A DNA stretch of 64,000 nt from an uncultured Actinomycetes bacterium (GCA_963707525.1 CAVPQJ010000002.1:372138-436137); one strand, 5' to 3'. Shown: positions 33,662-46,365, numbered from the stretch's first letter. Notes: generated from the letters alone by a model not told the origin. Made by a program: numbers and translations.

Positions 33662-35510
33662 ATGGCCCCGACCGTAGTGGCGCATCGAGCGCTCGTCGAG
33701 CACCTGCCGCTCGTTACGTACATGGTCCGTCTCGAGGCACCGTCGCGTGCGGTGTTCGTCAGTCCTCAGATCGAGCCCGTGTTCGGTTTCACGACGGAGG
33801 ATTTCGAGGCGGCGGATTTCTGGGAACGGCGCATGGCGCCGAGGATCTTCCGCGCTTCCTCACCGCCTTCGCCGAGCTGCGCGAGAAGCACGGGCAGATG
33901 TCGGTCGAATACCGGGTCACGACACGAGCCGGTCGCGAGGTGTGGGTACGCGACGTCGGCATCGTCCATCGCGCCGATGACGGCGAGTTCTACGTCCACG
34001 GTTACCTCACCGATGTGACGCGCGAGAAGGAGCTCGAGCGCGAGCAGGAGCAGTACCGGCGCCTGATCGAACAGCTGCCGCTCGTCACGTACGTGAACAC
34101 CCTCGTGCCGGACGTGAAGGCGAGGTCGACCTATGTGAGCCCGCAGATCGAGGAGCTCTTCGGCTACCCGGTCGAGTTGTGGCTCGACAACGCAGAGCTC
34201 TGGGATCCGACCTTGCACCCGGATGACCTCGAGCTCGTCGACGGTGGCGAGCAGCTGGCGCGCGATCGAGGCGAGCCGTTCGAGCTCGAGTACCGGATCG
34301 TCCGCGCGGACGGCACCGTCCGCTGGGTGCTCGATCAGATGCACACGCTGTACGACGCCGAGGGCACGCCGCTCTACGAGCAAGGCTTCCTCGTCGACGT
34401 CACCGAGCGCAAGGAAAGCGCGAACCTGTTCCAGGCCGTCTTCGACGGAGCCTTCGAGGCGATGATCATCTCGAACGACGAAGGCACCTACGTCGATGTC
34501 AACCCGGCCGCCTGCGAGCTCATCGGTCGCACGCGCGACGAGCTGCTCGGCTTGAAGCTCGGAGCGCTGAGCGGGTTGGAGGGGAACGTCGAGGAGGCCT
34601 GGCGCTCGCTGCTCAGAGGACGGCTCGGTGAAGGGGCAGTACGAGTTCACCCGGCCCGACGGGGTCGTGCGCGAGGTCGAGTTCTCGGCGAGAGCGAATG
34701 CGTTGCCCGGGAAGCACATCGCAGTGCTTGCGAGACGTCACCGAGCGCAGGCAGCTCGAACGCGACCTCTGGCGCGCGCAGCGCCTCGAAAGCGTCGGCC
34801 GCCTCGCGGGCGGTGTCGCGCAGGACTTCAACAACCTCCTCACGGCGATCCGCGGCTACGCGCAGCTGCTGATCGCGCAGGTCGAGCCGGGAAGCGTCGA
34901 GCATCACCACGCAGGCGAGATCGACCACGCGGCAGATCGCGCCGCCGCGCTGACGGCCCAGCTGCTCGCGTTCGGCCGCCGCCAGGTTCTGCAGGCTCGC
35001 CCGGCCGAGCTCAAGCGACTGGTCGAGAATCTCGAGGGCGTGCTCTCCCGCCTCGTCGGAGACGAGGTCGAGCTCGAGTTCGAGCTGAACCCGGGAGTCA
35101 ACCCGGTGCGCATCGACGCGGGGCAGATCGAGCAGGTGCTCGTCAACCTCGTCGTCAATGCCGCTGACGTCACACCTGCCGGCGGGCGTATCGTCGTTCG
35201 CACCGCGACGTCGGATGCGGCCTCGCTCGACGACCTGCCGGAGGGCCGTTACGCCGTCCTCTCGGTCCAGGATTCGGGGCCGGGCATCGACGAGTCAGCG
35301 CTCGAGCATCTCTTCGAGCCGTTCTTCACGACGAAGGATGTCGGCGGAGGCGTCGGCCTCGGCCTCGCGACCGCGTACGGGATCGCAAAGCAGAGCGGCG
35401 GCACGATCTCCGTCACAACGGCTGCCGGCGTCGGGTCGACGTTCGCGGTGTTCCTCCCGGAAGCGTCCGCGGCGCGGGCGGATGACAGAGCCTGCCGCCG
35501 GCGCGGGTGA
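33662..35510 (+). pseudogene. Three-PAS sensor histidine-kinase-like protein with Gln at the H-box His position. Frame breaks near 33838, 34612 and 34730.
   Basis: PAS cores (LPLVTYMVRLE.., LPLVTYVNTLV..HPDDLELV.., FQAVFDGAFEAMIISN). The DHp box is LAGGVAQDFNNLL (CAG codon) where the neighbouring kinase has AHDFNN. N-box NLVVNA, G1 DSGPGI, G2 GGVGLGL. Confidence 0.8.
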
Positions 35511-35796
35511 GACGATCGTCGTCGTCGAGAGCAACCCTGCCGTCCGCGACGTGCTCTTCGAAGTTCTGTCGGACGCCGGCTATCGCGCCATCACGACGGC
35601 CACTCCAACCGATGCGATGCGGGTCTCCGAGCATCTGGACCGTCCGATCGACCTCGTGCTCACCGAGCTGGACGAGACGCGTGCTGCCGCCCTGGCGGAG
35701 TCGCTCGGCGCTGCGCGGGCGCTGACACTCCAGAAGCCGTACTCGCCGGAGCGCCTGCGCGATGCCGTCCGGGGCGTGCTCGACGCATCCGAATAG
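35482..35796 (+). CDS. Degenerate receiver-like domain. It is either the C-terminal domain of the preceding kinase (needs a +1 shift) or a separate ORF starting at ATG 35482.
   Basis: ETIVVVESNPAVRDVL...IDLVLTELDE...LTLQKPYSP. There is an acidic pocket and Lys, but Glu sits at the acceptor position. It lies in the +1 frame relative to the kinase and overlaps it by 29 nt. Confidence 0.55.
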   Translation: MTEPAAGAGETIVVVESNPAVRDVLFEVLSDAGYRAITTATPTDAMRVSEHLDRPIDLVLTELDETRAAALAESLGAARALTLQKPYSPERLRDAVRGVLDASE

Positions 35797-35905
35797 GGTG
35801 ACCGGCATCCCCGATTCGGAGGATGCAGACGCAACGATCCGTCGTAGGCCGAAATGACGGTCGGCGCCTAGCGCGAGCACCCGGATTCCGTCGAAGCTTC
35901 CCCCG

Positions 35906-37492
35906 ATGGATGTTTCGCTGTCAGAAAAGGAGCTCGAGCGCCGCGTCGCGGAGCGGACGGCGGAGCTCGTCGCTGCGTTGCAGAAGAGCGAAGCGCGCTT
36001 TCGCGCGCTGATCGAGAACTCGATCGACGTCACGGCGATCCTCGATGCCGACATGCGGGTGCAGTACGTCAGCCCGTCGGTGACGCGCATACTCGGCTAC
36101 TCGGCGGACGAGATCACGGGCTCGGCCTCGCTCGATTTCGTTCATCCGGAGGATGCGGCAGTGGTCGGCCGAGCTCTTCACCCGCGAGCTCGACGAGCCG
36201 AGCGTCATGCAGACGGATCAGTTCCGCGCGCGCCACAAGGACGGAACCTGGCGGCTGATGGACGCTGTCGGGCTCAACCTGCTCGCGGATCCCGGCGGTG
36301 CTCGGCATGGTCATCACAGCCCGCGACGTCACGGCGCGCCGCGCGCTCGAGGAGCGGCTCAAGCAATCCGAGCGTCTCGAGGCGGTCGGCCAGCTCGCCG
36401 GCGGGGTGGCTCACGATTTCAACAACGTTCTGCTCGTGATTCGCGGCTACAGCAGCGTCCTGCGTTCCGCGCTCACCGATCCGCAGCACATCGCGGACGT
36501 CGACGAGATCGCGAAGGCAGCCGACCGCGCTGCCGAGTTGACGCGCCAGTTGCTCGCCTTCGGCCGTCGCCTTGTCCTCGAGCCGCGTCTGCTCAGCCTG
36601 GCCGAGGTCGTTGGCAGCATGCAGAAGCTGCTTGCCCGAACGATGCCGGCGCGACATCGCGGTCGAGATCGCCGTCGCGGACGGCGTCGCACCGGTCGTC
36701 GCCGATCCTGCGCAGATCGAAGACGTGATCTTGAACCTCGCTTTCAACGCGCGTGACGTCTTGGAGGGCGGCGGGACGGTCACGCTCTCCGTCGACGAGA
36801 CGACCGTGAGCGGTGCGGAGGAAGGAATCGCTCCTCCGCTCACGCCGGGGCGCTACGTCACGCTCTCGGTTGCCGACGACGGCCCCGGCATCGCCGAGGA
36901 CGTCCTGCCGCACATCTTCGAGCCGTTCTTCACGACGAAGCAGGACGGAATCGGTACCGGCCTCGGGCTCTCGACGGTGTACGGAATCGTTGCGCAGAGT
37001 GGCGGCGGCATGGAGGTGTCCACATCCGAGTCGGGCGGCGCGCGATTCACGATCTATCTGCCCGCGGCGACGGGCCCGCTCGAGGACGGGGCGTGGGGAC
37101 CCACGGCCGGATCCCTCGCGGGCGGCGCAGAGACGATTCTGCTCGTCGAGGACGAGGCCCCGGTGCGCGAGCTCGTTCGCCGCGTCCTCGAGAGCCTCGG
37201 CTACGTCGTCCTCGCCGCGGGGCTGCCGAGCGAGGCGGAGCGCTTGCTCGAGGAGACTGCCAAGGTCGACCTCCTGCTCACGGACATCGTGATGCCGGAG
37301 ATGAGCGGCTACGACCTTGCGGAGCGCATCGGCGCGCAGCGCCCGGATGTGCGCCGGCTCTTCATCTCGGGCTATGCGCCTCGCGTGCAGCAGGTCAAGG
37401 GCCCGCTGCTCAAGAAGCCGTTCGCGCCCGAGCAGCTCGCGCGCGCCGTGCGCGCCGCGCTCGACGACAACGGACTGGTGGAGATTGCATGA
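35906..37492 (+). pseudogene. Hybrid sensor histidine kinase (PAS-HisKA-HATPase-REC), frame breaks near 36160, 36293 and 36650
   Basis: FRALIENSIDVTAILD (PAS), LAGGVAHDFNNVL (H-box), NLAFNA, DDGPGI, GTGLGLS, then ETILLVEDE..DLLLTDIVMPEMSG..FISGY..LLKKPF. Confidence 0.85.
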
Positions 37493-37504
37493 GCACGTGA
37501 ACGC

Positions 37505-38471
37505 GTGCTGTGCGTCGACGACGATGAGCAGGTACGGGCGCTGATCAGGCGCGTGGTGGTCGCCGCTGGATACGAGTGCATTGGGGCCGGCACGGTCGAC
37601 GACGCGCGGCGATTGCTTGCGGACGAGGAGTTCTCCGTTGTGCTGTGCGACATCGGTCTTCCTGGCAGCTCCGGACTCGAGCTGCTCGACGAGCTCGGAC
37701 GGACACGACCGGACATCGCGACGATCATGGTCACCGGGCACGACCACGTCGGCATCGTCGATGCAGCGCTGAAGCTCGGCGCCTTCGGCTACATCACGAA
37801 GCCGTTCGCCCCCAACGACCTGATGATCGACATCTCGAACGCGCTTCACCGCCGGCGGATCGAAGCCGAGCGCCGCGAAGCAGCAGAGTCCGCGCTGCAA
37901 CGCGCGTATGCGGGAACCCTCAGCCGGCTCAGCCGCGCTGTCGAGTATCACGACGGGGCGACCGGCGCGCATCTCGAGCGCGTGGGCTCCTTTACAGCCG
38001 ACATTGCGACTGCACTCGGGCTGCCGGAGGCGCAAGTGGAGCTCCTGCGCTTGGCGGCGCCGCTGCACGACATGGGGAAGATCGCCGTCGGCGACCGAAT
38101 CCTGCGCAAGACCGGAATGCTGACCGACGACGAGCGGGACCTGATGGAGCAGCACACCGAGATCGGCCGCGATCTGCTCGGCGACTCGGGCAGCGAGCTG
38201 CTCGAGCTGGCCGCGACCATCGCCTGGACGCACCACGAGCGCTGGGACGGAAGCGGCTACCCGCGCGGTCTCAAGGGCGACGAGATCCCGCTCGCAGGAC
38301 GCATCGTCGCAGTCGCGGACGTGTTCGACGCGCTCTCGAGCGATCGTCCGTACCGCCCACGGCTTTCGGTCGAGGAGGCGCAGGCCTGGATCCTCGACGG
38401 CTCCGGGCACCGCGTTCGACCCGGACGTGGTCGAGGCGTTCGTGCTCTCGATGGACCTGGTCGCCGCATGA
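37505..38471 (+). pseudogene. Response regulator with HD-GYP domain (putative c-di-GMP phosphodiesterase), one inserted base near 38408
   Basis: LCVDDDEQVR..VVLCDIGLPGSSG..IMVTGH..YITKPF. HD-GYP motifs: AAPLHDMGKI, HHERWDGSGYPRGL. The tail GTAFDPDVVEAFVLSMDLVAA* appears after the shift. Confidence 0.85.
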
Positions 38472-39088
38472 GCATCACCTGCGTCATCGCGGACGACCAT
38501 CCGCCGGTTCTCCAGTTTCTCTCGCGCTATCTCAGCAACAACGGGATCACGATCACGGCGAGCGCGCGGGACGGTGACGAGGCGCTGCGGAAGATCGTGG
38601 AGACCAAGCCGACGGTCGCCGTGCTCGATGCGCGCATGCCGCGCGTGTCCGGGCTCGACGTCCTGCGTGCGCTGACCGAGTCGAAGTCGTCGACGCGCGT
38701 GATCCTCTACACCGGTTACGGCGACGATGCATTGCTGAGCGACGCGCTCGACGCCGGCGTTGCCGGCGTGCTCGACAAGGAGGCGCCGCCCGACGATCTC
38801 GTGCGCGCGATCAAGATCGTCGCCGAGGGTGGCACGTATCTGGATCCGATCGCGGCCGCTGCGCTCATCCAGCAACGGCGGCGCAACCGCAACCGCGAGC
38901 TCACGCAGCGCGAGCGGGATGTCCTGCGCCTCCTCGCCGAGGGAAACACGAACAACCAGATCGGCGCAGTGCTGACGATCTCGCCTCAGACGGTGCGCAC
39001 GCACGTGCAGAAGGCGATGGAGAAGCTCGGCGCGACGACCCGCGTGCAGGCTGTCGCCATTGCCCTGCGCGAGTCCCTGATCAGCTAG
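38468..39088 (+). CDS. NarL/FixJ-family response regulator (REC + LuxR HTH)
   Basis: CVIADDHPP, VAVLDARMPRVSG, ILYTGY, LDKEAP. HTH: LTQRERDVLRLLAEGNTNNQIGAVLTISPQTVRTHVQKAMEKLG. ATGA overlap with the upstream gene. Confidence 0.9.
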   Translation: MSITCVIADDHPPVLQFLSRYLSNNGITITASARDGDEALRKIVETKPTVAVLDARMPRVSGLDVLRALTESKSSTRVILYTGYGDDALLSDALDAGVAGVLDKEAPPDDLVRAIKIVAEGGTYLDPIAAAALIQQRRRNRNRELTQRERDVLRLLAEGNTNNQIGAVLTISPQTVRTHVQKAMEKLGATTRVQAVAIALRESLIS

Positions 39089-39117
39089 CAGCGACCAGGG
39101 ACCCTGCGAAGAGAGCT

Positions 39118-39870
39118 TCAGCGACTGACGAAGGAGCTGAGGAAGCCGCGAGCGGACGCACTGTCGAGCCGCGTCGCGGTTGCATTGCCCTTGCACACCG
39201 GGTTGCCGCCGCTCGTCACGGAGACGACCGTCGAGCTGCCGGGGAGGTACTGGGGGCCGCCGGAGTCGCCGAAGCAGAGCTGTGCTCCGGTCTGTGAGCT
39301 GATCCGCAGGAGCGTCGCCGTCTGAGACACGACCGGCATCGCCGCCGCGTGGCGGAGTCCGTCGTAGGCGAAGCCCTTGCCGAGCAGCCCCGAGTAGCCG
39401 TAGCCGACGCTGAGAGGCGCGACTCCATCCTTGGCGAGGCGATCGGCGGCACCGGCAGTGGGGAGCGTTGCGGGCGCGACCGGAGCGTTCTCGTCGAGCA
39501 CGATCACGCCGAGGTCGTGCGGGTCGGAACTGTCGTGACCGAAGGCCGGATCGGTGACCGCGGTGCCGTGCATCGGCGTCCACGATCCGGGATCGAGGGC
39601 GTCGCCGAAGACGACATAGGCGCCGCCTGCGGCGAGAGCGTAGTTCGTGCAGTGACCGGCGGTCAGGAACACACGCGGCGCGACGAGCACGCCGGAGCAC
39701 TCCGGAACGAGCCCGTTCGGACTAGGGACGAGCAGCGCACCCGCGGCCGGATGCTGCCCGGCGTCCAGGTTGCCGCCGATGACGCCTTGCGCGGCGGCGG
39801 TCGCTGTGAGCGCGACCGTCACCGCCACCAGCGAGAACAGTGTTCGAACGTTGATGACGTACCTCCGCAT
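39118..39870 (-). CDS. Secreted trypsin-like serine protease (S1 family)
   Basis: Signal peptide ...ALTATAAAQG followed by VIGG. Catalytic triad context: LTAGHC, DLGVIVL, GDSGGP. Confidence 0.9.
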   Translation of the reverse strand: MRRYVINVRTLFSLVAVTVALTATAAAQGVIGGNLDAGQHPAAGALLVPSPNGLVPECSGVLVAPRVFLTAGHCTNYALAAGGAYVVFGDALDPGSWTPMHGTAVTDPAFGHDSSDPHDLGVIVLDENAPVAPATLPTAGAADRLAKDGVAPLSVGYGYSGLLGKGFAYDGLRHAAAMPVVSQTATLLRISSQTGAQLCFGDSGGPQYLPGSSTVVSVTSGGNPVCKGNATATRLDSASARGFLSSFVSR

Positions 39871-39895
39871 TGAGTCGAGAGAAAGGGGTGGGCGA

Positions 39896-40000
39896 CTAGC
39901 GGCCGCCGCTGAAGCCGTAGCCCCACTTGAGGCCGCCGACGAGCGATGCGAGCGCGATGGCCGGAAGGGCCACGCGAGTGATGATCGAGAAATAACGCAT
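39896..40000 (-). CDS. 34-codon small ORF (hydrophobic N-half, aromatic/Gly C-tail), absent from the ORF track
   Basis: ATG at 40000 to TAG at 39896: MRYFSIITRVALPAIALASLVGGLKWGYGFSGGR. It is preceded by AAGGAGGTG plus a 7-nt spacer, and that SD begins immediately after the TPR gene stop. Confidence 0.6.
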   Translation of the reverse strand: MRYFSIITRVALPAIALASLVGGLKWGYGFSGGR

Positions 40001-40007
40001 GTGCATT

Positions 40008-40016
40008 CACCTCCTT
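40008..40016 (-). promoter_or_regulatory. Shine-Dalgarno element AAGGAGGTG for the 34-codon ORF
   Basis: The reverse complement of cacctcctt is AAGGAGGTG. It sits 7 nt upstream of the ATG and directly abuts the upstream TAG (40017-40019). Confidence 0.6.
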
Positions 40017-41322
40017 CTAGAGATGGACGTCTTGGAGAGAATCTGCAGCGCGGCGATAGAGATCGGCGGCGGCGTCGAGGTCGCCGGTCTCGCGCGCGAG
40101 GTCGCCGCGCGCGACCCAGGCCAAAGCGAGGTGGCTCGTCGAGCCGATCGCAGTCGAACGTGCTGCTCGGCCGCGTCGATCCACTCGACTGCGAGGGCGT
40201 GGTCGCCCTCGGCCGCGAGTGAGCGTGCGACGACGAGCTGGGCGTTGCCGAGCTCGTCGCGAAAGTCGATCCGGCCGGTGAGCAGCTCGACGGCGCGCTC
40301 GGCGCGTACGCGGGCTTCGACGGGGCGTCCCGTCTTCAGGAGGACGTGCGCGAGCGTGTTGACAGCCTGCGCGAGATCCGGGTCGCTGCCGGCCTTCGCC
40401 GCCGTCTCCGCGGCGTCGATCAGGTTCTCTTCGGCCGCCGCGACGTCGCCGAGCAGGAAGTCGATGCCGCCGAGGTTGTTGAGGATCTTCGCGGTGGCGA
40501 GCGTGTCGTCGTGCTTGCGGTAGAGCTCGAGCGCTCGCTCGCCGTAGAAACGAGCGACGAGCCAATCCTTGCGGCGCTCGGCGATGCAGGACGCCTGGAA
40601 GAGCGCGTGTGCCTGCGCCGGCTCGTCGCCTGCGCGGGTCGCAAGCTTGAGCGACCATTCGGCGTCGCGTCGCCGCTGCATCCCAGTCGCGGCGGAGCTG
40701 ATGGCAGCGCGAGCGCCACTCGTAGATGTTGGCGGCGAGCAGAGTGCGCGGGCGCGGTGCGTGCTCGTTCAGGTCGAGCGCGCGAGTGAAGAGCGAGGTC
40801 GCGTCCGCGACCTGTGCGCTCTTGAGCGCGACACAGCCGCGCCGGTAGAGAACCTCGGCGCGGTCGCCGGCGTCGAACCTCGGTGACTTGACGATCGCTC
40901 TCGGCGTGCTCGAGCAGCTCGGCCGCGTGCTCGAGCTCACCGCGGTACATCTCGCTCCAGGACAGCGCCAGGCGGTGTCGCAGGGCGAGCGCGGCATCCG
41001 AACGCACCCCGCTCCAGAGGTCCTCGAGCGCTTCGACTGCTTCGTCGTGACGGTTCGTCGCGACGAGTTGCTCGGCGGCTGCGAGCGCATCCGCAAGGTC
41101 GTCGCGGACGAGCGCAAGCGTCGTCACGGGGGGAAGTTCGAAGAAGGAAGCCGCAGCAGCCATCCGTCTCAGCATCGCGAGGACGAGCGCCGCTGTCGAT
41201 TGACGCAACCGGTCGACCGCTCTACGGCGTTTTGTGGCTGCAGCGTCTCTTCGGGTCAGTCCGATCGCTCGCTGCAGCGACACCAGGTCTCCCCGGCAGT
41301 GCGTGACGTCCGCGTGCCGCAT
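40017..41322 (-). pseudogene. TPR-repeat protein (about 435 aa, possible N-terminal HTH), frame breaks near 40895, 40685 and 40160
   Basis: Helical repeat pairs run throughout (HDEAVEALEDLW, RAEVLYRRGCVALKSAQVADATSLFTRALDL, AHALFQASCIAERRKDWLVARFYGERALELY, LATAKILNNLGGIDFLLGDVAAAEENL, LAQAVNTLAHVLLKTGRPVEA, LALAWVARGDLARETGDLDAAADLYRRA). Pieces lie in ORFs 40420..42009, 40017..41117 and 40007..40681. The start is uncertain. Confidence 0.7.
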
Positions 41323-41344
41323 ATGAACGACAGGTCTAGAGGAC

Positions 41345-41910
41345 ATGCTGAAGCGTCTCGTCCTCCCGCTCGTTCTCGCTTTCGCGCTCGCGCCGGCCGC
41401 GCACGCCGGCCGGCGGCAGGTACGTCTTCGACGGCGGAACACGCGCGCAGCGCGGCCAGGTGACGTCGGCGCTCGCGCGCCAGCAGCTTCGACTGGAACC
41501 TCGTGCCCGGCCGGATCGTGATCCACATCGGCAAGGGGATCTCCTCCCACGCCGTGGCCGGTCAGATCTGGCTCGACGGAGGCTCTCCTCGACACCGGTC
41601 GCTTCTCCTGGGGGGTCGTCCAGCACGAGTACGCCCACCAGGTCGACTTCGGGCTCCTGAGCGATCCGATGCGCGCGCAGCTCCAGCCGCTCCTCCAGGA
41701 CAGCTGCGTGGTGGGGCTCGATCGACCAGCACGCGCAGCTCGGCTGCGAGCGCTTCGCCGATCTGCTCGCGTGGGCCTACTGGCAGTCGCCCAGACAACG
41801 TCATGAAGCCCTCGAGCGCAACCGACGAAGGCGGGCAGGTATCGCCGGCTGCCTTTCGCGCGGCGCTCACGGCACTGATTCAGAGCAAGACCCCTCCCCG
41901 AAAAGGGTGA
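41345..41910 (+). pseudogene. Small secreted protein with HExxH motif (putative metallopeptidase-like), about 5 frame breaks
   Basis: Signal peptide MLKRLVLPLVLAFALAPAAHA. Reconstructed pieces: RYVFDGGTRAQRGQVTSALAR / SSFDWNLVPGRIVIHIGKG / LLDTGRFSWGVVQHEYAHQVDFGLL / AWWGSIDQHAQLGCERFADLLAWAYWQSP / DNVMKPSS... The reconstruction is by eye. Confidence 0.45.
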
Positions 41911-41968
41911 TACGGGATACGTCGGGATGTCGATCCGGCTGCGCCGGATGAGGGACGACAACTGAGGT

Positions 41969-42616
41969 ATGGCTTCTGTTCGCTCTCTCCATGTCCGGTC
42001 GGAGACCACCTGCGTGATCGCGGACGATCACCCGCCGATCATCGACTGCCTCTCGCGATACCTGACGGGCGCCGGCTTCACGGTGGTCGCTACGGCACAG
42101 GATGGGCAAGCAGCGCTCAACGAGATCCTTGCTCACCGTCCGACGGTCTGCATCGCCGATGTTCGCATGCCACACATCGATGGGCTCGAGCTCGCCCGGC
42201 GAGCCTTGATCGAAGCTCCCGAGACCGCGGTGCTCCTCTATTCGGGCGTTTCGGATCGCGGCCTCGTCTCTGATGCGCTCGACGCCGGCGCCCGTGGCTT
42301 CGCGCTCAAAGATGCTCCGCTCGACGATCTTGGCCGCGCGCTCGACTCGGTCGCGTCCGGCGGTCTCTATGTCGACCCGGTCCTCGCCGCGTCGCTTGCC
42401 ACCCGCCGTGGTGACGACCGCAAGCCGCTCTCGGAGCGCGAGCGAGAGGTGCTGCGTCTGCTTGCCGAAGGCGGTTCCTATGCGGAGATCGGCGAATCTC
42501 TCTTCCTGTCGCCCGACACGGTGCGCGCACATGCGCAGCGGGCGATGCTGAAGCTCGGCGCTCGCACGCGCACGCAGGCCGTCGCGGTCGCGCTGCGCGA
42601 AGCCGTTATCGGCTGA
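41969..42616 (+). CDS. NarL/FixJ-family response regulator (paralogue of 38468..39088)
   Basis: CVIADDHPPIIDCLSRYL, VCIADVRMPHIDG, LLYSGV, ALKDAP. HTH: LSEREREVLRLLAEGGSYAEIGESLFLSPDTVRAHAQRAMLKLG. Confidence 0.9.
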   Translation: MASVRSLHVRSETTCVIADDHPPIIDCLSRYLTGAGFTVVATAQDGQAALNEILAHRPTVCIADVRMPHIDGLELARRALIEAPETAVLLYSGVSDRGLVSDALDAGARGFALKDAPLDDLGRALDSVASGGLYVDPVLAASLATRRGDDRKPLSEREREVLRLLAEGGSYAEIGESLFLSPDTVRAHAQRAMLKLGARTRTQAVAVALREAVIG

Positions 42617-42728
42617 TCGATCTCGCGGCTCATCAGCCCCACCAGTCTCGGAGGGACCGACGCGGCGAAGGTCCCTCCGGGAACTCTTCGAGAAACCGAT
42701 CGGCCCTCGCCCGCGTAGGACTGGTCAA

Positions 42729-43228: not shown

Positions 43229-44595
43229 CTAGGCCGCGGAGTAGCCCTCGCGGCGCAGCAGCGTCCGCGCGAGCTCGGCGTTGTCGCCGCCGGAGATCAG
43301 GATGACGAGCACGGCGCCGTACTCCGGCGAGACGTGGCGCAGCTCGAAGTCCTCGATGTTGATGCCCGCGGCGCCGAGCGTCTGCGTGATGCGGGCGAGC
43401 ACGCCGGGCTGGTCGGGGATCCGCACGCGGATGCGGTTCAGCATGCGCGCCTCCGTGCGGTAGGCGTACTCGAGCATGCGGCTGCGCGTTTGCGCGGCCT
43501 CGGCGATCCACCGCTCGAAGAACGCGCGGTCGCGCTCGCGTAACGCGCGCTCGACCTCGCCGAGCGCTTCGCCGTGGGCGGCGAGCGCGTCGGCGATCAG
43601 ATCTCCGTTCTCGACGAAGATGTCCGCCCAGACCGCGGGGTTCGCACCGGCGACGCGCGTCATCTCGCGCAGCGACGCACCGGCGTACCCGAGCGCTTCG
43701 TCGCCGGCCTGCGCGACGCTCTGCATGAGCAGGTTCGCGAGAGCATGGGGGAGGTGGCTCGTGAGCGCGAGTAGCCGGTCGTGTGTTTCGGCGTCGAGCT
43801 TGATCGTGCGGGCACCGAGCGATGCGACGAACCGCTCGACGAGCTCGATGCGACCGGCATCTGTCGACGCGACCGGTGTGAGGAACCACGTCGCGCCGTC
43901 GAAGAGGTCGGCCGCCGCTCGAGCGGGGCCGCCGGTCGCGCCGCCGGCGAGCGGATGCCCCGGAACGAGGCGCGCGTCGTCGATCTCCTGCGCGAGCGCG
44001 CGCTTCGTCGAACCGACGTCGGTCACCGTTGTGTCGGCGACGCCGAGGCGAGCACATCGCGGGTCGTCGCCACCAGCACACCGACAGGGACGGCGACGAC
44101 GACGAGCTCCACGCCGGCCACGGCTTCGGCCAAAGACCCTGCCGAGGCGTCGAGGGCCTTCGCGCCGACGGCTTCTTGCAGGGTTTCCGAATCGGCGTCC
44201 CAGCCGGTCACCCGGGCGACTCCGGCCCGCTTGGCGGCGAGGGCGACAGAGGCTCCGAGGAGGCCCGTTCCGACGATCGCGAGCGAGCCCACGGCGGGCT
44301 TTCGTGCCCGCACCGGGGCCTCCGGGGCGGGGGCGTCCCCCCGGACCTCTTGCTTCATGACGTCGAGCACAGCGGCGAAAACTCCCTGCACAGAGCGCTC
44401 TGAGAGGGGTCCGGCGTTGGCGTCGGCGAGCTCCCGGAGCAGCTCGGCCTCCCGCTCGGCGTCGATCAGCGGCGTCCCCGTATCCTGCTTGTGCCGAGTG
44501 ACACGACGGACGAGCTCGAGGCGCCGGTTCAGGGTCTCGAGCACGGTCCGATCGAGCGCTCCGATCTCCTCCCGCAGGCGATTCAGGTCGTCCAT
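43229..44595 (-). pseudogene. tyrA: Bifunctional chorismate mutase / prephenate dehydrogenase with C-terminal ACT domain, one frame break near 44030
   Basis: CM type II: LNRLREEIGALDRTVLETLNRRLELVRRV. PDH: LAIVGTGLLGASVALAA, VPGHPLAG. ACT: IRVRIPDQPGVLARITQTLGAAGINIEDF. Confidence 0.85.
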
Positions 44596-44685
44596 TCGGG
44601 GCAGTTTTGCACGGTTCCCCGCCCCCTCCGTCCTACGCCTACGCTTGAATCCACCGCTGACACGTAAACCCAGGAGGTTTTTCGA

Positions 44686-45006
44686 ATGCCAATGACGCAG
44701 ACGCAGCTCGCCGACGCGGTCGCCGAGAAGGCTGGTCTCTCGCGCGCAGACGCGAAGAAGGCACTCGCCGCTCTCGAGGAAGTCATCCTCGACGAGATCG
44801 GAAACGCCGAAAAGGTGAAGATCGGCGGCGTCGTGCAACTCGACGTGCGCGTGCGTCCGGCGACCCAGGAGCGCCCGGGCCGGAACCCGGCGACCGGCGA
44901 GGAGATCACGATCTCCGCGAAGCCGGCATCCGTCGCAGTGAAGGCACGGCCGCTTGCGAAGGCGAAGGCCGCCGCTCCGCCGCTCTCGCGCGTCCAGGGC
45001 CGGTAG
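44686..45006 (+). CDS. hup: HU family DNA-binding protein with a short Ala/Lys/Pro tail
   Basis: MTQTQLADAVAEKAGLSRADAKKALAALEEVI...RPGRNPATGEEITISA. AGGAGG lies upstream. Confidence 0.9.
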   Translation: MPMTQTQLADAVAEKAGLSRADAKKALAALEEVILDEIGNAEKVKIGGVVQLDVRVRPATQERPGRNPATGEEITISAKPASVAVKARPLAKAKAAAPPLSRVQGR

Positions 45007-45032
45007 CAAGTTCAGCGAGGCCGCGTCCGGCG

Positions 45033-46365
45033 ATGCCGGGCGCGGCCTGCTTTCCTGTTGGCGTGCGTTTGCTCGCCGTCGTCGTTCTGTTCGCCGCGGT
45101 TGCGGGGAATGCAGCTGCGGCTGTCGGCAACGTGCAAGTTGCTGCGTCGTCGTCGTCCGCGACAGTGACCTGGCAGACAACCGCACCAACGCGCGGTCGC
45201 GTCGCGTACGGCATCGGCGGCTTCTATCTGTACAGCGCGCGGAGAGCACAGCTGCGATCGCGCACTCGGTCACGCTCGACGACCTCAACCCGTCGACGAC
45301 GTACTCGTTCCGCGTCGGCTCGGTCACGGGGGAGGTAACGACGACAGCACGTGCGGCGCCGGTTCAGTTCGGCACCGACGGCCCGCGCATCACTGCCGAC
45401 GGCGCGCTGTTCTTCCCGGTGCTTTCGTACGAGCAGTGCGCAGACACCTTGGGGCGTGCGCTGGCGCTTGGCGTGAATATGTTCGTTCAAGTGCCGTTCA
45501 CCGGTTGCTCGCAACCTGTCGCGGTCTCACCGCCCTATGTGTTGAGCGATCAGTACGGCGCGGAGAACGGATCGGGCTGGTACCTGCCCGACGAGCCCGA
45601 CGGCTGGGGCATCACCCCGGAGCAGATGCCGCACCTGCCGCCTGCCGCGCAGACCGGGCGCCTCAGGGTTCTGAACATCTCGCAGCATTTCTTCAGCAAG
45701 CAGGCGCCGATCAACGACCACTTCGACCGCAACGACTACAAGCGCTTCGCGGCGCTCGCCGACGTCATCGGCTTCGACATGTATCCGATCGTGAAGTTCT
45801 GTGGACGTGTGCCGCTCACCGACATGTTCCGCGCGCAGCGCGAGTTGATGACGATCTACGCGCCCGGGAAGCCGACGTTCCAATGGATCGAGACGAGCCA
45901 GATGACCGGCGAGTGCCCGTCGATGCAGATCACGCCGCAGATCGTCAATGCGGAGACGTGGCTCGCGATCGCCGGCGGTGCCTGCGGGATCGGGTATTTC
46001 ACGAACAGCTGGACCGGCGACCTCTGGAACCGCTGGGACTTCGATCCAGGGGTCGAGCAACAGATCGCAACGACCGTTGCCGAAGTGCAGCGCCTGGCGC
46101 CGGCACTCTGCGCCGATTACGGGAGCGTCGTCGTCCCGTGGGACGGCACAGTCGCGCGAGCAGCCGGACGCTGAACGGTGCGCTCTATGTGATCGCCGTG
46201 AACGGGAGCGACAGGCCGACGCGAGTTCCGTTCCGCGTCGACTCGCTTGCAGGTCGCACGCTGACGGTGATCGACGAAGGTCGTTCGATCACGCCCGTGA
46301 AGAAGGTCTTCTTCCGCGACTCGTTTGGGCCGTACCAGGTGCACGTCTACGTCGCCCAACCCTGA
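45033..46365 (+). pseudogene. Secreted protein: Fn3/purple-acid-phosphatase-N-like domain plus a putative glycoside-hydrolase-like barrel. Frame breaks near 45235 and 46170.
   Basis: Signal VRLLAVVVLFAAVAGNAAAA. SATVTWQTTAPTRGRVAYG...HSVTLDDLNPSTTYSFRVGS. The catalytic-domain call is weak (no motif recognised). Confidence 0.5.

Follow-up and report, generated by a model that had tools for sequence, protein, structure and literature searches.

The cassette described here lies on the minus strand of a 64,000-nucleotide stretch of DNA from an uncultured Actinomycetes bacterium (GCA_963707525.1 CAVPQJ010000002.1:372138-436137), referred to as the window, and consists of a gene for a tetratricopeptide repeat (TPR) protein, a 34-codon peptide gene that follows it directly and a gene for a secreted S1 serine protease. 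Judged by sequence comparison, the TPR gene and the coupled small open reading frame (ORF) are a conserved module that is co-inherited across the Gaiellales. The comparative evidence for such a receptor/peptide(/protease) module is strong, and a signalling function is well motivated by analogy with known systems. It is proposed, with a probability of about one half, that the cassette is an RRNPP/Rap-Phr-like module of receptor, pro-peptide and maturation protease, in which the peptide would be exported, processed, re-imported and bound by the TPR protein. Peptide signalling by way of cytoplasmic TPR receptors is regarded as a hallmark of the Bacillota and their phages and plasmids, and Actinomycetota typically signal with small molecules (PMC10075063); for Actinobacteria, Actinomycetota and Gaiellales, full-text literature searches turned up no account of a system of the RRNPP type. 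The G+C content of the window is about 68%, and the names attached to homologues of its TPR protein are those of Gaiellaceae and Gaiellales (Thermoleophilia, Actinomycetota).

The TPR gene and its coupled peptide gene

The cassette is composed of the following features.

40017..41163, minus strand: TPR receptor-like gene, 380 aa after repair of the frame; Pfam TPR_12 and TPR_2
40008..40016, minus strand: Shine-Dalgarno sequence AAGGAGGTG, immediately behind the stop codon of the TPR gene, with a 7-nt gap to the ATG of the peptide gene
39896..40000, minus strand: 34-codon peptide gene MRYFSIITRVALPAIALASLVGGLKWGYGFSGGR, with its ATG at 40000 and its stop codon at 39898..39896
39118..39870, minus strand: secreted S1A (chymotrypsin-family) serine protease, 250 aa; Pfam Trypsin

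The TAG stop codon of the TPR gene occupies 40019..40017, where the initial annotation had placed it, and 16 nt separate it from the ATG of the peptide gene. Homologue search and alignment show that nearly all of 696 TPR homologues are 380 aa long and begin with MAAAAS.ELPPVTT, and because of this the start of the gene is set at 41163 and not at about 41322; the protein of about 435 aa that had been described earlier is thus shortened to 380 aa. Alignment to an 88.5%-identical metagenomic contig reveals four single extra bases in the gene (40898, 40669, 40165 and 40152), one more than the three frame breaks counted before. All four are located outside homopolymers, and their deletion gives a clean 380-aa TPR protein.

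The 34-codon ORF that had been noticed behind the TPR gene is genuine, as it is preceded by a Shine-Dalgarno sequence and conserved in relatives. A scan of species-representative genomes recovered 46 loci, all of them from metagenome-assembled genomes of Gaiellales or Thermoleophilia, and a metagenome scan added 80 more. The peptide ORF is present in 46/46 genome loci and, among 124 loci, in all that are evaluable, which is to say that they hold enough sequence downstream of the TPR gene; there it is 28-50 aa long and begins 7-34 nt after the TPR stop codon. The search for the small ORF beside orthologous TPR genes, which had been proposed as a check, therefore finds it at each evaluable locus, over a range of TPR identities from 38 to 94%. 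Upstream of the ORF there is a strong Shine-Dalgarno site, with a 6-mer match to AAGGAGGTG in almost all related loci, and the peptide gene is translationally coupled to the TPR gene. In six sub-clades the pooled ratio of nonsynonymous to synonymous variation (pN/pS) is 0.0-0.63 and a disproportionate share of the variable sites falls on third codon positions. Right behind TPR orthologues whose identity to P0008, the orthologue used below for structure comparison, is 83%, 74% and 65%, gene callers had predicted a gene of 32-38 aa; one of these three loci is found in a wholly different neighbourhood and two are without a protease.

In the window peptide a basic N-terminus precedes a hydrophobic core, a lysine and a conserved C-terminal tail, G-F-S-G-G-R. 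The same build is seen in 99 unique peptides, of which 84 have exactly two N-terminal Lys or Arg residues, followed by an uncharged hydrophobic core (median 16 residues, range 13-28) with small residues near its end, then usually Lys, and then the tail. The tail, whose conservation had been singled out for checking, is kept as G-[FWLHY]-x-x-G-x(1-3)-COOH in 98 of the 99, and its two glycines are invariant in an alignment of 48 sequences. A profile search of 5.8 billion proteins with the peptide returned 48 clusters, all named 'hypothetical' and without a Pfam match; neither Pfam nor NCBIfam holds a family for these peptides, and no SHP-type model matched them.

Two variants of the peptide stand out. 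In one locus (L035:4613-4765) a 50-aa form, MKMRSLIALVVLVQAALFLAAAGPDRSVEATKGSSDPASYLVSPGFHRGG, carries a hydrophilic spacer of 20 residues between the hydrophobic core and the C-terminal motif, which resembles the layout of signal peptide, pro-region and mature peptide; because the two are spaced apart in this way, core and tail motif appear to be separate modules. In one sub-clade (L041, L043-L045, L050, L051) the tail contains a cysteine (..GFCRGG), through which the putative mature peptide could undergo disulfide or thiol chemistry.

The TPR fold and the helix-turn-helix-bearing sister clade

The window TPR protein matches Pfam TPR_12 with 64.3 bits and TPR_2 with 51.3 bits, has neither a signal peptide nor another domain, and finds only generic TPR models in Pfam and NCBIfam. 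The AlphaFold (AF2) model of P0008, which is 83% identical to the composite window query, has a mean predicted local distance difference test score (pLDDT) of 91; residues 1-16 are disordered and are followed by 18 helices that form nine TPR-like pairs. In full-length Foldseek comparisons this model superimposes best on peptide-bound Rap proteins and NprR, namely RapJ-PhrC (4gyo; TM 0.69/0.72), NprR (0.68/0.72), the phi3T Rap protein with its pheromone (0.68-0.69) and RapF-PhrF (0.66). A Rap-like overall fold on its own is weak evidence, because TPR folds are generic.

A-helices of TPR proteins line the concave groove of the superhelix. Among 89 members of the family the A-helices are more conserved than the B-helices (0.69 vs 0.60, p=0.003), and the near-invariant polar residues (R62, W69, R101, WRSRC149-153, S191, R196, N228, D262, D299, E303 and S342) are mostly located on A-helices. 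N228 is conserved in at least 95% of these members and N229 is invariant in the clade of the window. In a profile search RapJ is the best natural sequence match in the PDB (E=1e-6 over about 75 residues), and the alignment places the family motif ILNNLGG on YYNVG of RapJ, with N229 on RapJ Asn225. RRNPP receptors share a conserved TPR A-helix asparagine that hydrogen-bonds the peptide backbone (PMC3601957, PMC3763537), and the position of RapF Asn227 is strictly conserved in RNPP proteins and binds the peptide backbone (PMC3601957). If RapJ Asn225 is equivalent to RapF Asn227, N229 may be the counterpart of this position, which makes the alignment suggestive only.

A large sister clade carries an XRE-type helix-turn-helix (HTH) domain, ...LGERVRQLRIARGLTQTDLAG.RFSKEYVSQIERGKTRP..., in front of a TPR domain that is about 40% identical to that of the window protein. 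This HTH scores 45.7 bits with HTH_31 and 40.2 bits with HTH_3, both above the Pfam cut-offs, and is found at the following loci.

HTH-bearing loci: L023-L025, L027, L031-L037, L039-L045, L047, L048, L050 and L120 (for example L031:4752-6089)

The HTH-bearing orthologues keep the downstream peptide gene, with tails such as GHFGGR, GFHRGG and GFCRGG, and no protease adjoins in this clade. At E<=1e-20 the 446-aa HTH-TPR form makes up no fewer than 6898 protein clusters, and names such as 'transcriptional regulator' and 'helix-turn-helix domain-containing protein [Gaiellaceae]' are attached to some of them. The model of this form (pLDDT 90) shows five short and 18 long helices; in Foldseek it matches the phi3T Rap protein with its pheromone at a TMt of 0.73-0.75 and, at a TMt of 0.68, the PlcR-PapR7-DNA complex. 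By analogy, an HTH, a TPR domain and an adjoining small peptide gene are the canonical layout of an RRNPP receptor with its peptide. At the sequence level, matches to PlcR and ComR are limited to the HTH of these orthologues.

Pfam finds no HTH in the window TPR protein. The HTH+TPR fold for which a structure check had been proposed is therefore found in part, the Rap/NprR-like TPR superhelix being present in the window's family and the HTH only in the sister clade. The HTH clade is nested on a midpoint-rooted neighbour-joining tree, and the domain may either have been lost in the window lineage or gained in the sister clade.

In the HTH-less forms the predicted disordered N-terminus (residues 1-16; window 41119-41163, minus strand) holds a conserved (E/D)LPPVTT sequence in which the two prolines never vary and which is possibly a docking motif. 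In the HTH-bearing orthologues the end of the HTH domain and the linker take up roughly this position in the alignment. In the HTH-bearing clade a 28-aa peptide gene is left uncalled by the gene finder (L133:7342-7792, L031:6194-6500). About 450 nt of unannotated DNA lie between the HTH-TPR regulator and a rhodanese gene, a stretch that may hold the operator or a target promoter of the regulator.

The protease, the proposed signalling route and its rivals

The protease gene begins 25 nt beyond the peptide gene, directly downstream as had been described. Pfam Trypsin matches the product with 53.5 bits (cut-off 20.6), and the initial annotation of a secreted trypsin-like protease with VIGG behind a signal-like N-terminus agrees with this match and with the sequence, in which a basic and hydrophobic N-terminus, MRRYVINVRTLFSLVAVTVALTATAAAQG, ends in ...TAAAQG, with VIGG coming next. 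The protein also contains the motifs of the H/D/S triad (TAGHC, HDLGV and GDSGGP), and alignment to PDB entries of factor D and trypsins shows Gln where chymotrypsin has its residue 189.

In the loci of 25 unique peptides an S1 protease gene on the same strand has its start 42-450 nt beyond the peptide gene, and in those of 60 of the 85 unique peptides with scorable downstream sequence there is no protease within at least 700 nt. All 25 protease-linked tails contain [YF]GF (19 GYGFS, 3 YGFHDGR and one each of YGFFGGK, GFGFAYGR and HYGFSNGG); the exception to the association is a GYGFSSGR locus, L018, that has no protease (first survey only). On the TPR tree, lineages with a protease occur here and there in both of the major clades, which corresponds to eight changes under parsimony, and within the window clade the protease-less L004 and L056/L062 also lack the Lys-x-Gly-Tyr part of the tail. 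On the most economical reading the ancestral operon would have had the order TPR-peptide-protease, with the tail diverging at each loss of the protease. Such divergence on protease loss would point to a functional link between protease and tail and, since the protease is secreted, would mean that the tail is extracellular at some point. The earlier suggestion that the protease is a maturation enzyme is thus consistent with its co-variation with the tail, which fits processing, and is qualified by the optional nature of the gene.

According to the RRNPP/Rap-Phr-like model, the peptide would be inserted into or exported across the membrane in an N-in/C-out orientation by means of its hydrophobic segment. 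The tail would be released outside the cell by the cognate S1 protease where there is one, and elsewhere by signal peptidase or other proteases, and a C-terminal peptide of about 6-10 residues would be re-imported to bind in the concave groove of the TPR superhelix. Binding is proposed to switch the receptor, with the HTH-bearing orthologues acting directly on DNA and the HTH-less window receptor acting, like Rap, on a partner protein for which the NarL-type regulators beside the cassette are only candidates. The RRNPP signature has been formulated as a small exported pro-peptide of 10-100 aa directly adjacent to a receptor of 250-500 aa that contains TPRs (PMC10075063), and four of its five elements are found here, namely peptide size, receptor size (380 aa, and 446 aa in the HTH form), TPRs and adjacency. 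The RRNPP-like layout proposed in the initial annotation is thus borne out in adjacency, sizes, TPRs, the Rap/NprR-like fold and the existence of HTH-bearing orthologues, and not in the window protein itself as regards an HTH.

Among the known systems, Rap-Phr pairs offer the closest parallels to the window cassette in several respects. The target of Rap is a response regulator, Spo0F or ComA, which it binds and inhibits, and Phr maturation involves secreted serine proteases. Like the window protein, Rap is an all-helical receptor of about 380 aa that lacks a DNA-binding domain and, when bound to its peptide, forms nine TPR-like pairs; the pro-peptide gene is located immediately downstream in the same operon and encodes a basic and hydrophobic N-terminus and a functional C-terminus, and response-regulator genes are found near the window cassette. 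Unlike Rap-Phr, the cassette belongs to the Actinomycetota and not the Bacillota, its TPR protein shares only generic TPR similarity with Rap (the RapJ match mentioned above), it is apparently single-copy and core-like whereas Rap-Phr systems are multi-copy or mobile, its tail motif is conserved across an order and not diversified, and in some lineages the protease gene is part of the cassette and encodes an S1 and not a subtilisin-type enzyme.

The NprR-NprX and PlcR-PapR systems of the Bacillus cereus group are reminiscent of the sister clade, in which an XRE-HTH and nine TPRs make up a 446-aa protein with a peptide gene downstream. Chromosomal nprR-nprX adjoins the gene of a secreted protease, nprA, and this arrangement recalls the TPR-peptide-protease order of the cassette. 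In contrast to NprR and PlcR, the window protein has no HTH and is not a member of their sequence families, and the peptides of the cassette, at 28-40 aa, are shorter and have hardly any pro-region or none. The neighbouring protease of NprR is a regulated target, whereas the protease here co-varies with the peptide sequence, which indicates a processing role.

The streptococcal SHP pro-peptides are about 22-35 aa long and consist of a Lys-rich N-terminus, a hydrophobic stretch and an active C-terminus, and several of them end in Gly-Gly. The pro-peptides of the cassette are likewise very short and have a similar three-part build. SHPs are missed by SignalP and their export is Sec-independent (PMC10075063). 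Unlike the cassette, Rgg-SHP systems have a receptor of about 285 aa with a different repeat domain, and the active part of SHP is hydrophobic and not rich in Gly and aromatic residues; neither Pfam nor NCBIfam yielded a match to an Rgg or SHP model. The TPR domains of LGN/Pins resemble the family in that conserved A-helix asparagines line a groove which binds extended peptides. They are eukaryotic scaffolds for which no evolutionary or functional link is implied, and their full-length TM values (0.5-0.6) are lower than those of Rap and NprR.

Several observations weigh against the RRNPP/Rap-Phr-like model. The TPR protein has no family-level sequence membership in Rap, NprR, PlcR, PrgX, Rgg or AimR, TPR superhelices are generically alike, and the best Foldseek E-values (1e-9) belong to the LGN/Pins domains. 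The window protein lacks an output domain, and no partner gene is syntenic across clades. A lysine after the core is atypical just behind a Sec cleavage site, and the length of the core is compatible with either a signal peptide or a short membrane anchor. The tail motif is order-wide, whereas the pherotypes of known RRNPP systems diversify, and an intracellular partnership would account for it just as well. Its correlation with the protease rests on a limited number of independent lineages. Each genome record, including four complete chromosomes of 2.4-2.6 Mb, holds one core-like locus, and no relatives were found on the viral contigs searched; the locus is apparently single-copy and vertically inherited. 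For these reasons of family membership the cassette is filed as an independent or very distant lineage with RRNPP architecture and not as a member of the known receptor families.

The main rival model is that of a membrane microprotein. Here the peptide would be retained as a single-pass protein and bound by the TPR protein, through its tail if C-in or in a pre-insertion form, so that no diffusible signal is made; it would tether or titrate the regulator, and the protease would clip or sense its exposed part. Many peptides have cores of 18-28 residues with basic residues on both sides, the order-wide tail and single-copy core-like locus are what a fixed intracellular contact would be expected to leave, and TPR grooves, among them the LGN type with its top Foldseek E-values, commonly bind the C-terminal tails of partners. 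However, many other cores have only 13-16 uncharged residues, are rich in Ala, Thr and Ser and are short for a membrane helix. The two N-terminal basic residues of the 84 peptides favour an N-in/C-out orientation, which directs the tail away from a cytoplasmic TPR protein; co-variation with a secreted protease likewise puts the tail outside, and tails that extend only 5-8 residues past the core (GFGHFGGR) would have difficulty entering a TPR groove while anchored. A retained microprotein is considered rather unlikely. It is less probable still that the system is centred on the protease, with the small protein as its anchor, inhibitor or substrate-like regulator and the TPR protein as a regulator of the operon that does not bind the peptide. 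The tight link of (G)YGF tails to the protease gene would be in keeping with this, as would the HTH-bearing orthologues, which imply that the TPR family includes transcription factors. However, the 60 unique peptides without a downstream protease keep the TPR protein, the peptide and the G-x-x-x-G tail, which argues that the TPR-peptide pair functions independently of the protease, and the HTH-bearing clade has no adjoining protease.

The small ORF could also encode the precursor of a ribosomally synthesised and post-translationally modified peptide (RiPP), whose aromatic and Gly-rich core would be modified with the TPR protein as a scaffold, as in cyclophane RiPP clusters. The best NCBIfam match of the TPR protein is in fact HaaT, a TPR protein of cyclophane RiPPs (E=5e-9), and the tail is rich in aromatic residues and glycine. 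Against this, the HaaT match reaches 34.7 bits where the cut-off is 1125, and no conserved radical-SAM, cyclase, dehydratase or transporter gene is found beside the pair in any clade, which makes a RiPP precursor highly improbable. A chance ORF beside a generic TPR scaffold has to be considered in a GC-rich genome, since high-GC sequence yields many overlapping spurious ORFs, but it is effectively excluded by the conservation data: at every evaluable locus, even where TPR identity falls to 38%, the ORF persists together with its frame, Shine-Dalgarno sequence and C-terminal motif, substitutions fall preferentially on third positions, and gene callers independently predicted the ORF on many contigs.

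If the RRNPP/Rap-Phr-like model is correct, receptor/pro-peptide signalling would extend to another phylum and to thousands of soil Gaiellales sequences, and would provide a handle on the physiology of a dominant and almost uncultured soil lineage. More tentatively, and with the odds slightly against it, the cassette could be the first RRNPP-type signalling outside the Bacillota, ancient and vertically inherited in the Gaiellales, with both HTH-TPR and Rap-like receptor forms and an S1 protease that co-evolves with the peptide as its maturation enzyme. The predicted ligands are 6-10-mers ending in G-aromatic-x-x-G-x, which makes the hypothesis directly testable; the HTH-bearing orthologues offer a simple DNA-binding read-out, and the protease-bearing lineages a defined processing step. 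Even a retained microprotein would constitute a new and widespread pair of regulator and microprotein that is overlooked or called 'hypothetical' in current annotation.

Genomic surroundings and the upstream intergenic region

The cassette is flanked by the following features.

41164..41344, no strand: divergent intergenic region of 181 nt between the TPR gene and the HExxH gene; presumed promoters
41345..~41940, plus strand: signal-peptide/HExxH protein of about 197 aa, frame-broken and without a Pfam match; divergent neighbour
41969..42616, plus strand: NarL-type response regulator; divergent neighbour
38468..39088, plus strand: NarL-type response regulator, 206 aa; convergent, and joined through a frame error with the RR-HD-GYP (response regulator with HD-GYP) gene upstream of it
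41345-41940, 35906-37492, 37505-39088 and 43229-45327: examples of frame-shifted stretches

Both the NarL-type flanks and the divergent secreted HExxH protein reported before are thus present at the cassette. Neighbours were compared by tblastn with defined genes and by Pfam-annotated contigs, clustering of ORFs being swamped by spurious high-GC ORFs. In the sub-clade of the window, which comprises loci whose TPR identity is about 58% or higher, the gene order is NarL and HExxH on one strand, then TPR, peptide and (optionally) protease on the other, and after a second change of strand NarL, RR-HD-GYP and two hybrid kinases with PAS domains. This signalling block, which covers window positions 34000-42700 and the whole of locus L001, is syntenic only in this sub-clade. 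In other clades the neighbours are unrelated and include TetR/MFS genes upstream, rhodanese and MscL genes downstream, or MoxR/DUF58 genes. On this comparison TPR and peptide genes are the only universal core module and the flanking genes are outside the core. The flanking NarL-type regulators are, by analogy with Rap, the obvious but unproven candidate partners of the HTH-less receptor.

Single-base frame shifts relative to syntenic relatives occur in many genes between window positions 35900 and 45400, including housekeeping genes. Besides the TPR gene, the broken genes include those for the HExxH protein, a hybrid histidine kinase, the RR-HD-GYP/NarL pair and a chorismate mutase/prephenate dehydrogenase. 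Because neighbouring genes are broken as well, sequence error is likelier than pseudogenisation of the TPR gene, and the frame breaks more likely reflect an error-prone assembly than gene decay. In a window-wide alignment to L001, which at 83% identity is too divergent, errors and real indels are not separable.

The stretch LQRAIGLTRRDAAATKRRRAVDRLRQ, which had been taken as an N-terminus of the TPR protein with a weak resemblance to an XRE-type HTH, is located inside the 181-nt intergenic region upstream of the real TPR start and is non-coding. Several close relatives have in-frame stop codons at the equivalent stretch, and against a hidden Markov model (HMM) built from the HTH of the family itself the stretch does no better than chance (-2.2 bits, E=62). 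An HTH relic in the window was considered and rejected, as three-frame translations of upstream regions gave only chance-level matches to the same HMM. An apparent tblastn extension into upstream DNA in the clade of L028 was likewise discarded as a sign of a relic, as it is carried by the homologous TPR N-terminus and crosses stop codons.

A scan for promoters and terminators found nothing above shuffle expectation and no sigma-70 consensus in the 181-nt region. An in-frame translation of this intergenic DNA, ..KRRRAVDRLRQSTA.., recurs in L052, L054, L059, L061/62 and L132, and the conserved part of the region is probably a promoter/operator element shared by the two divergent operons.

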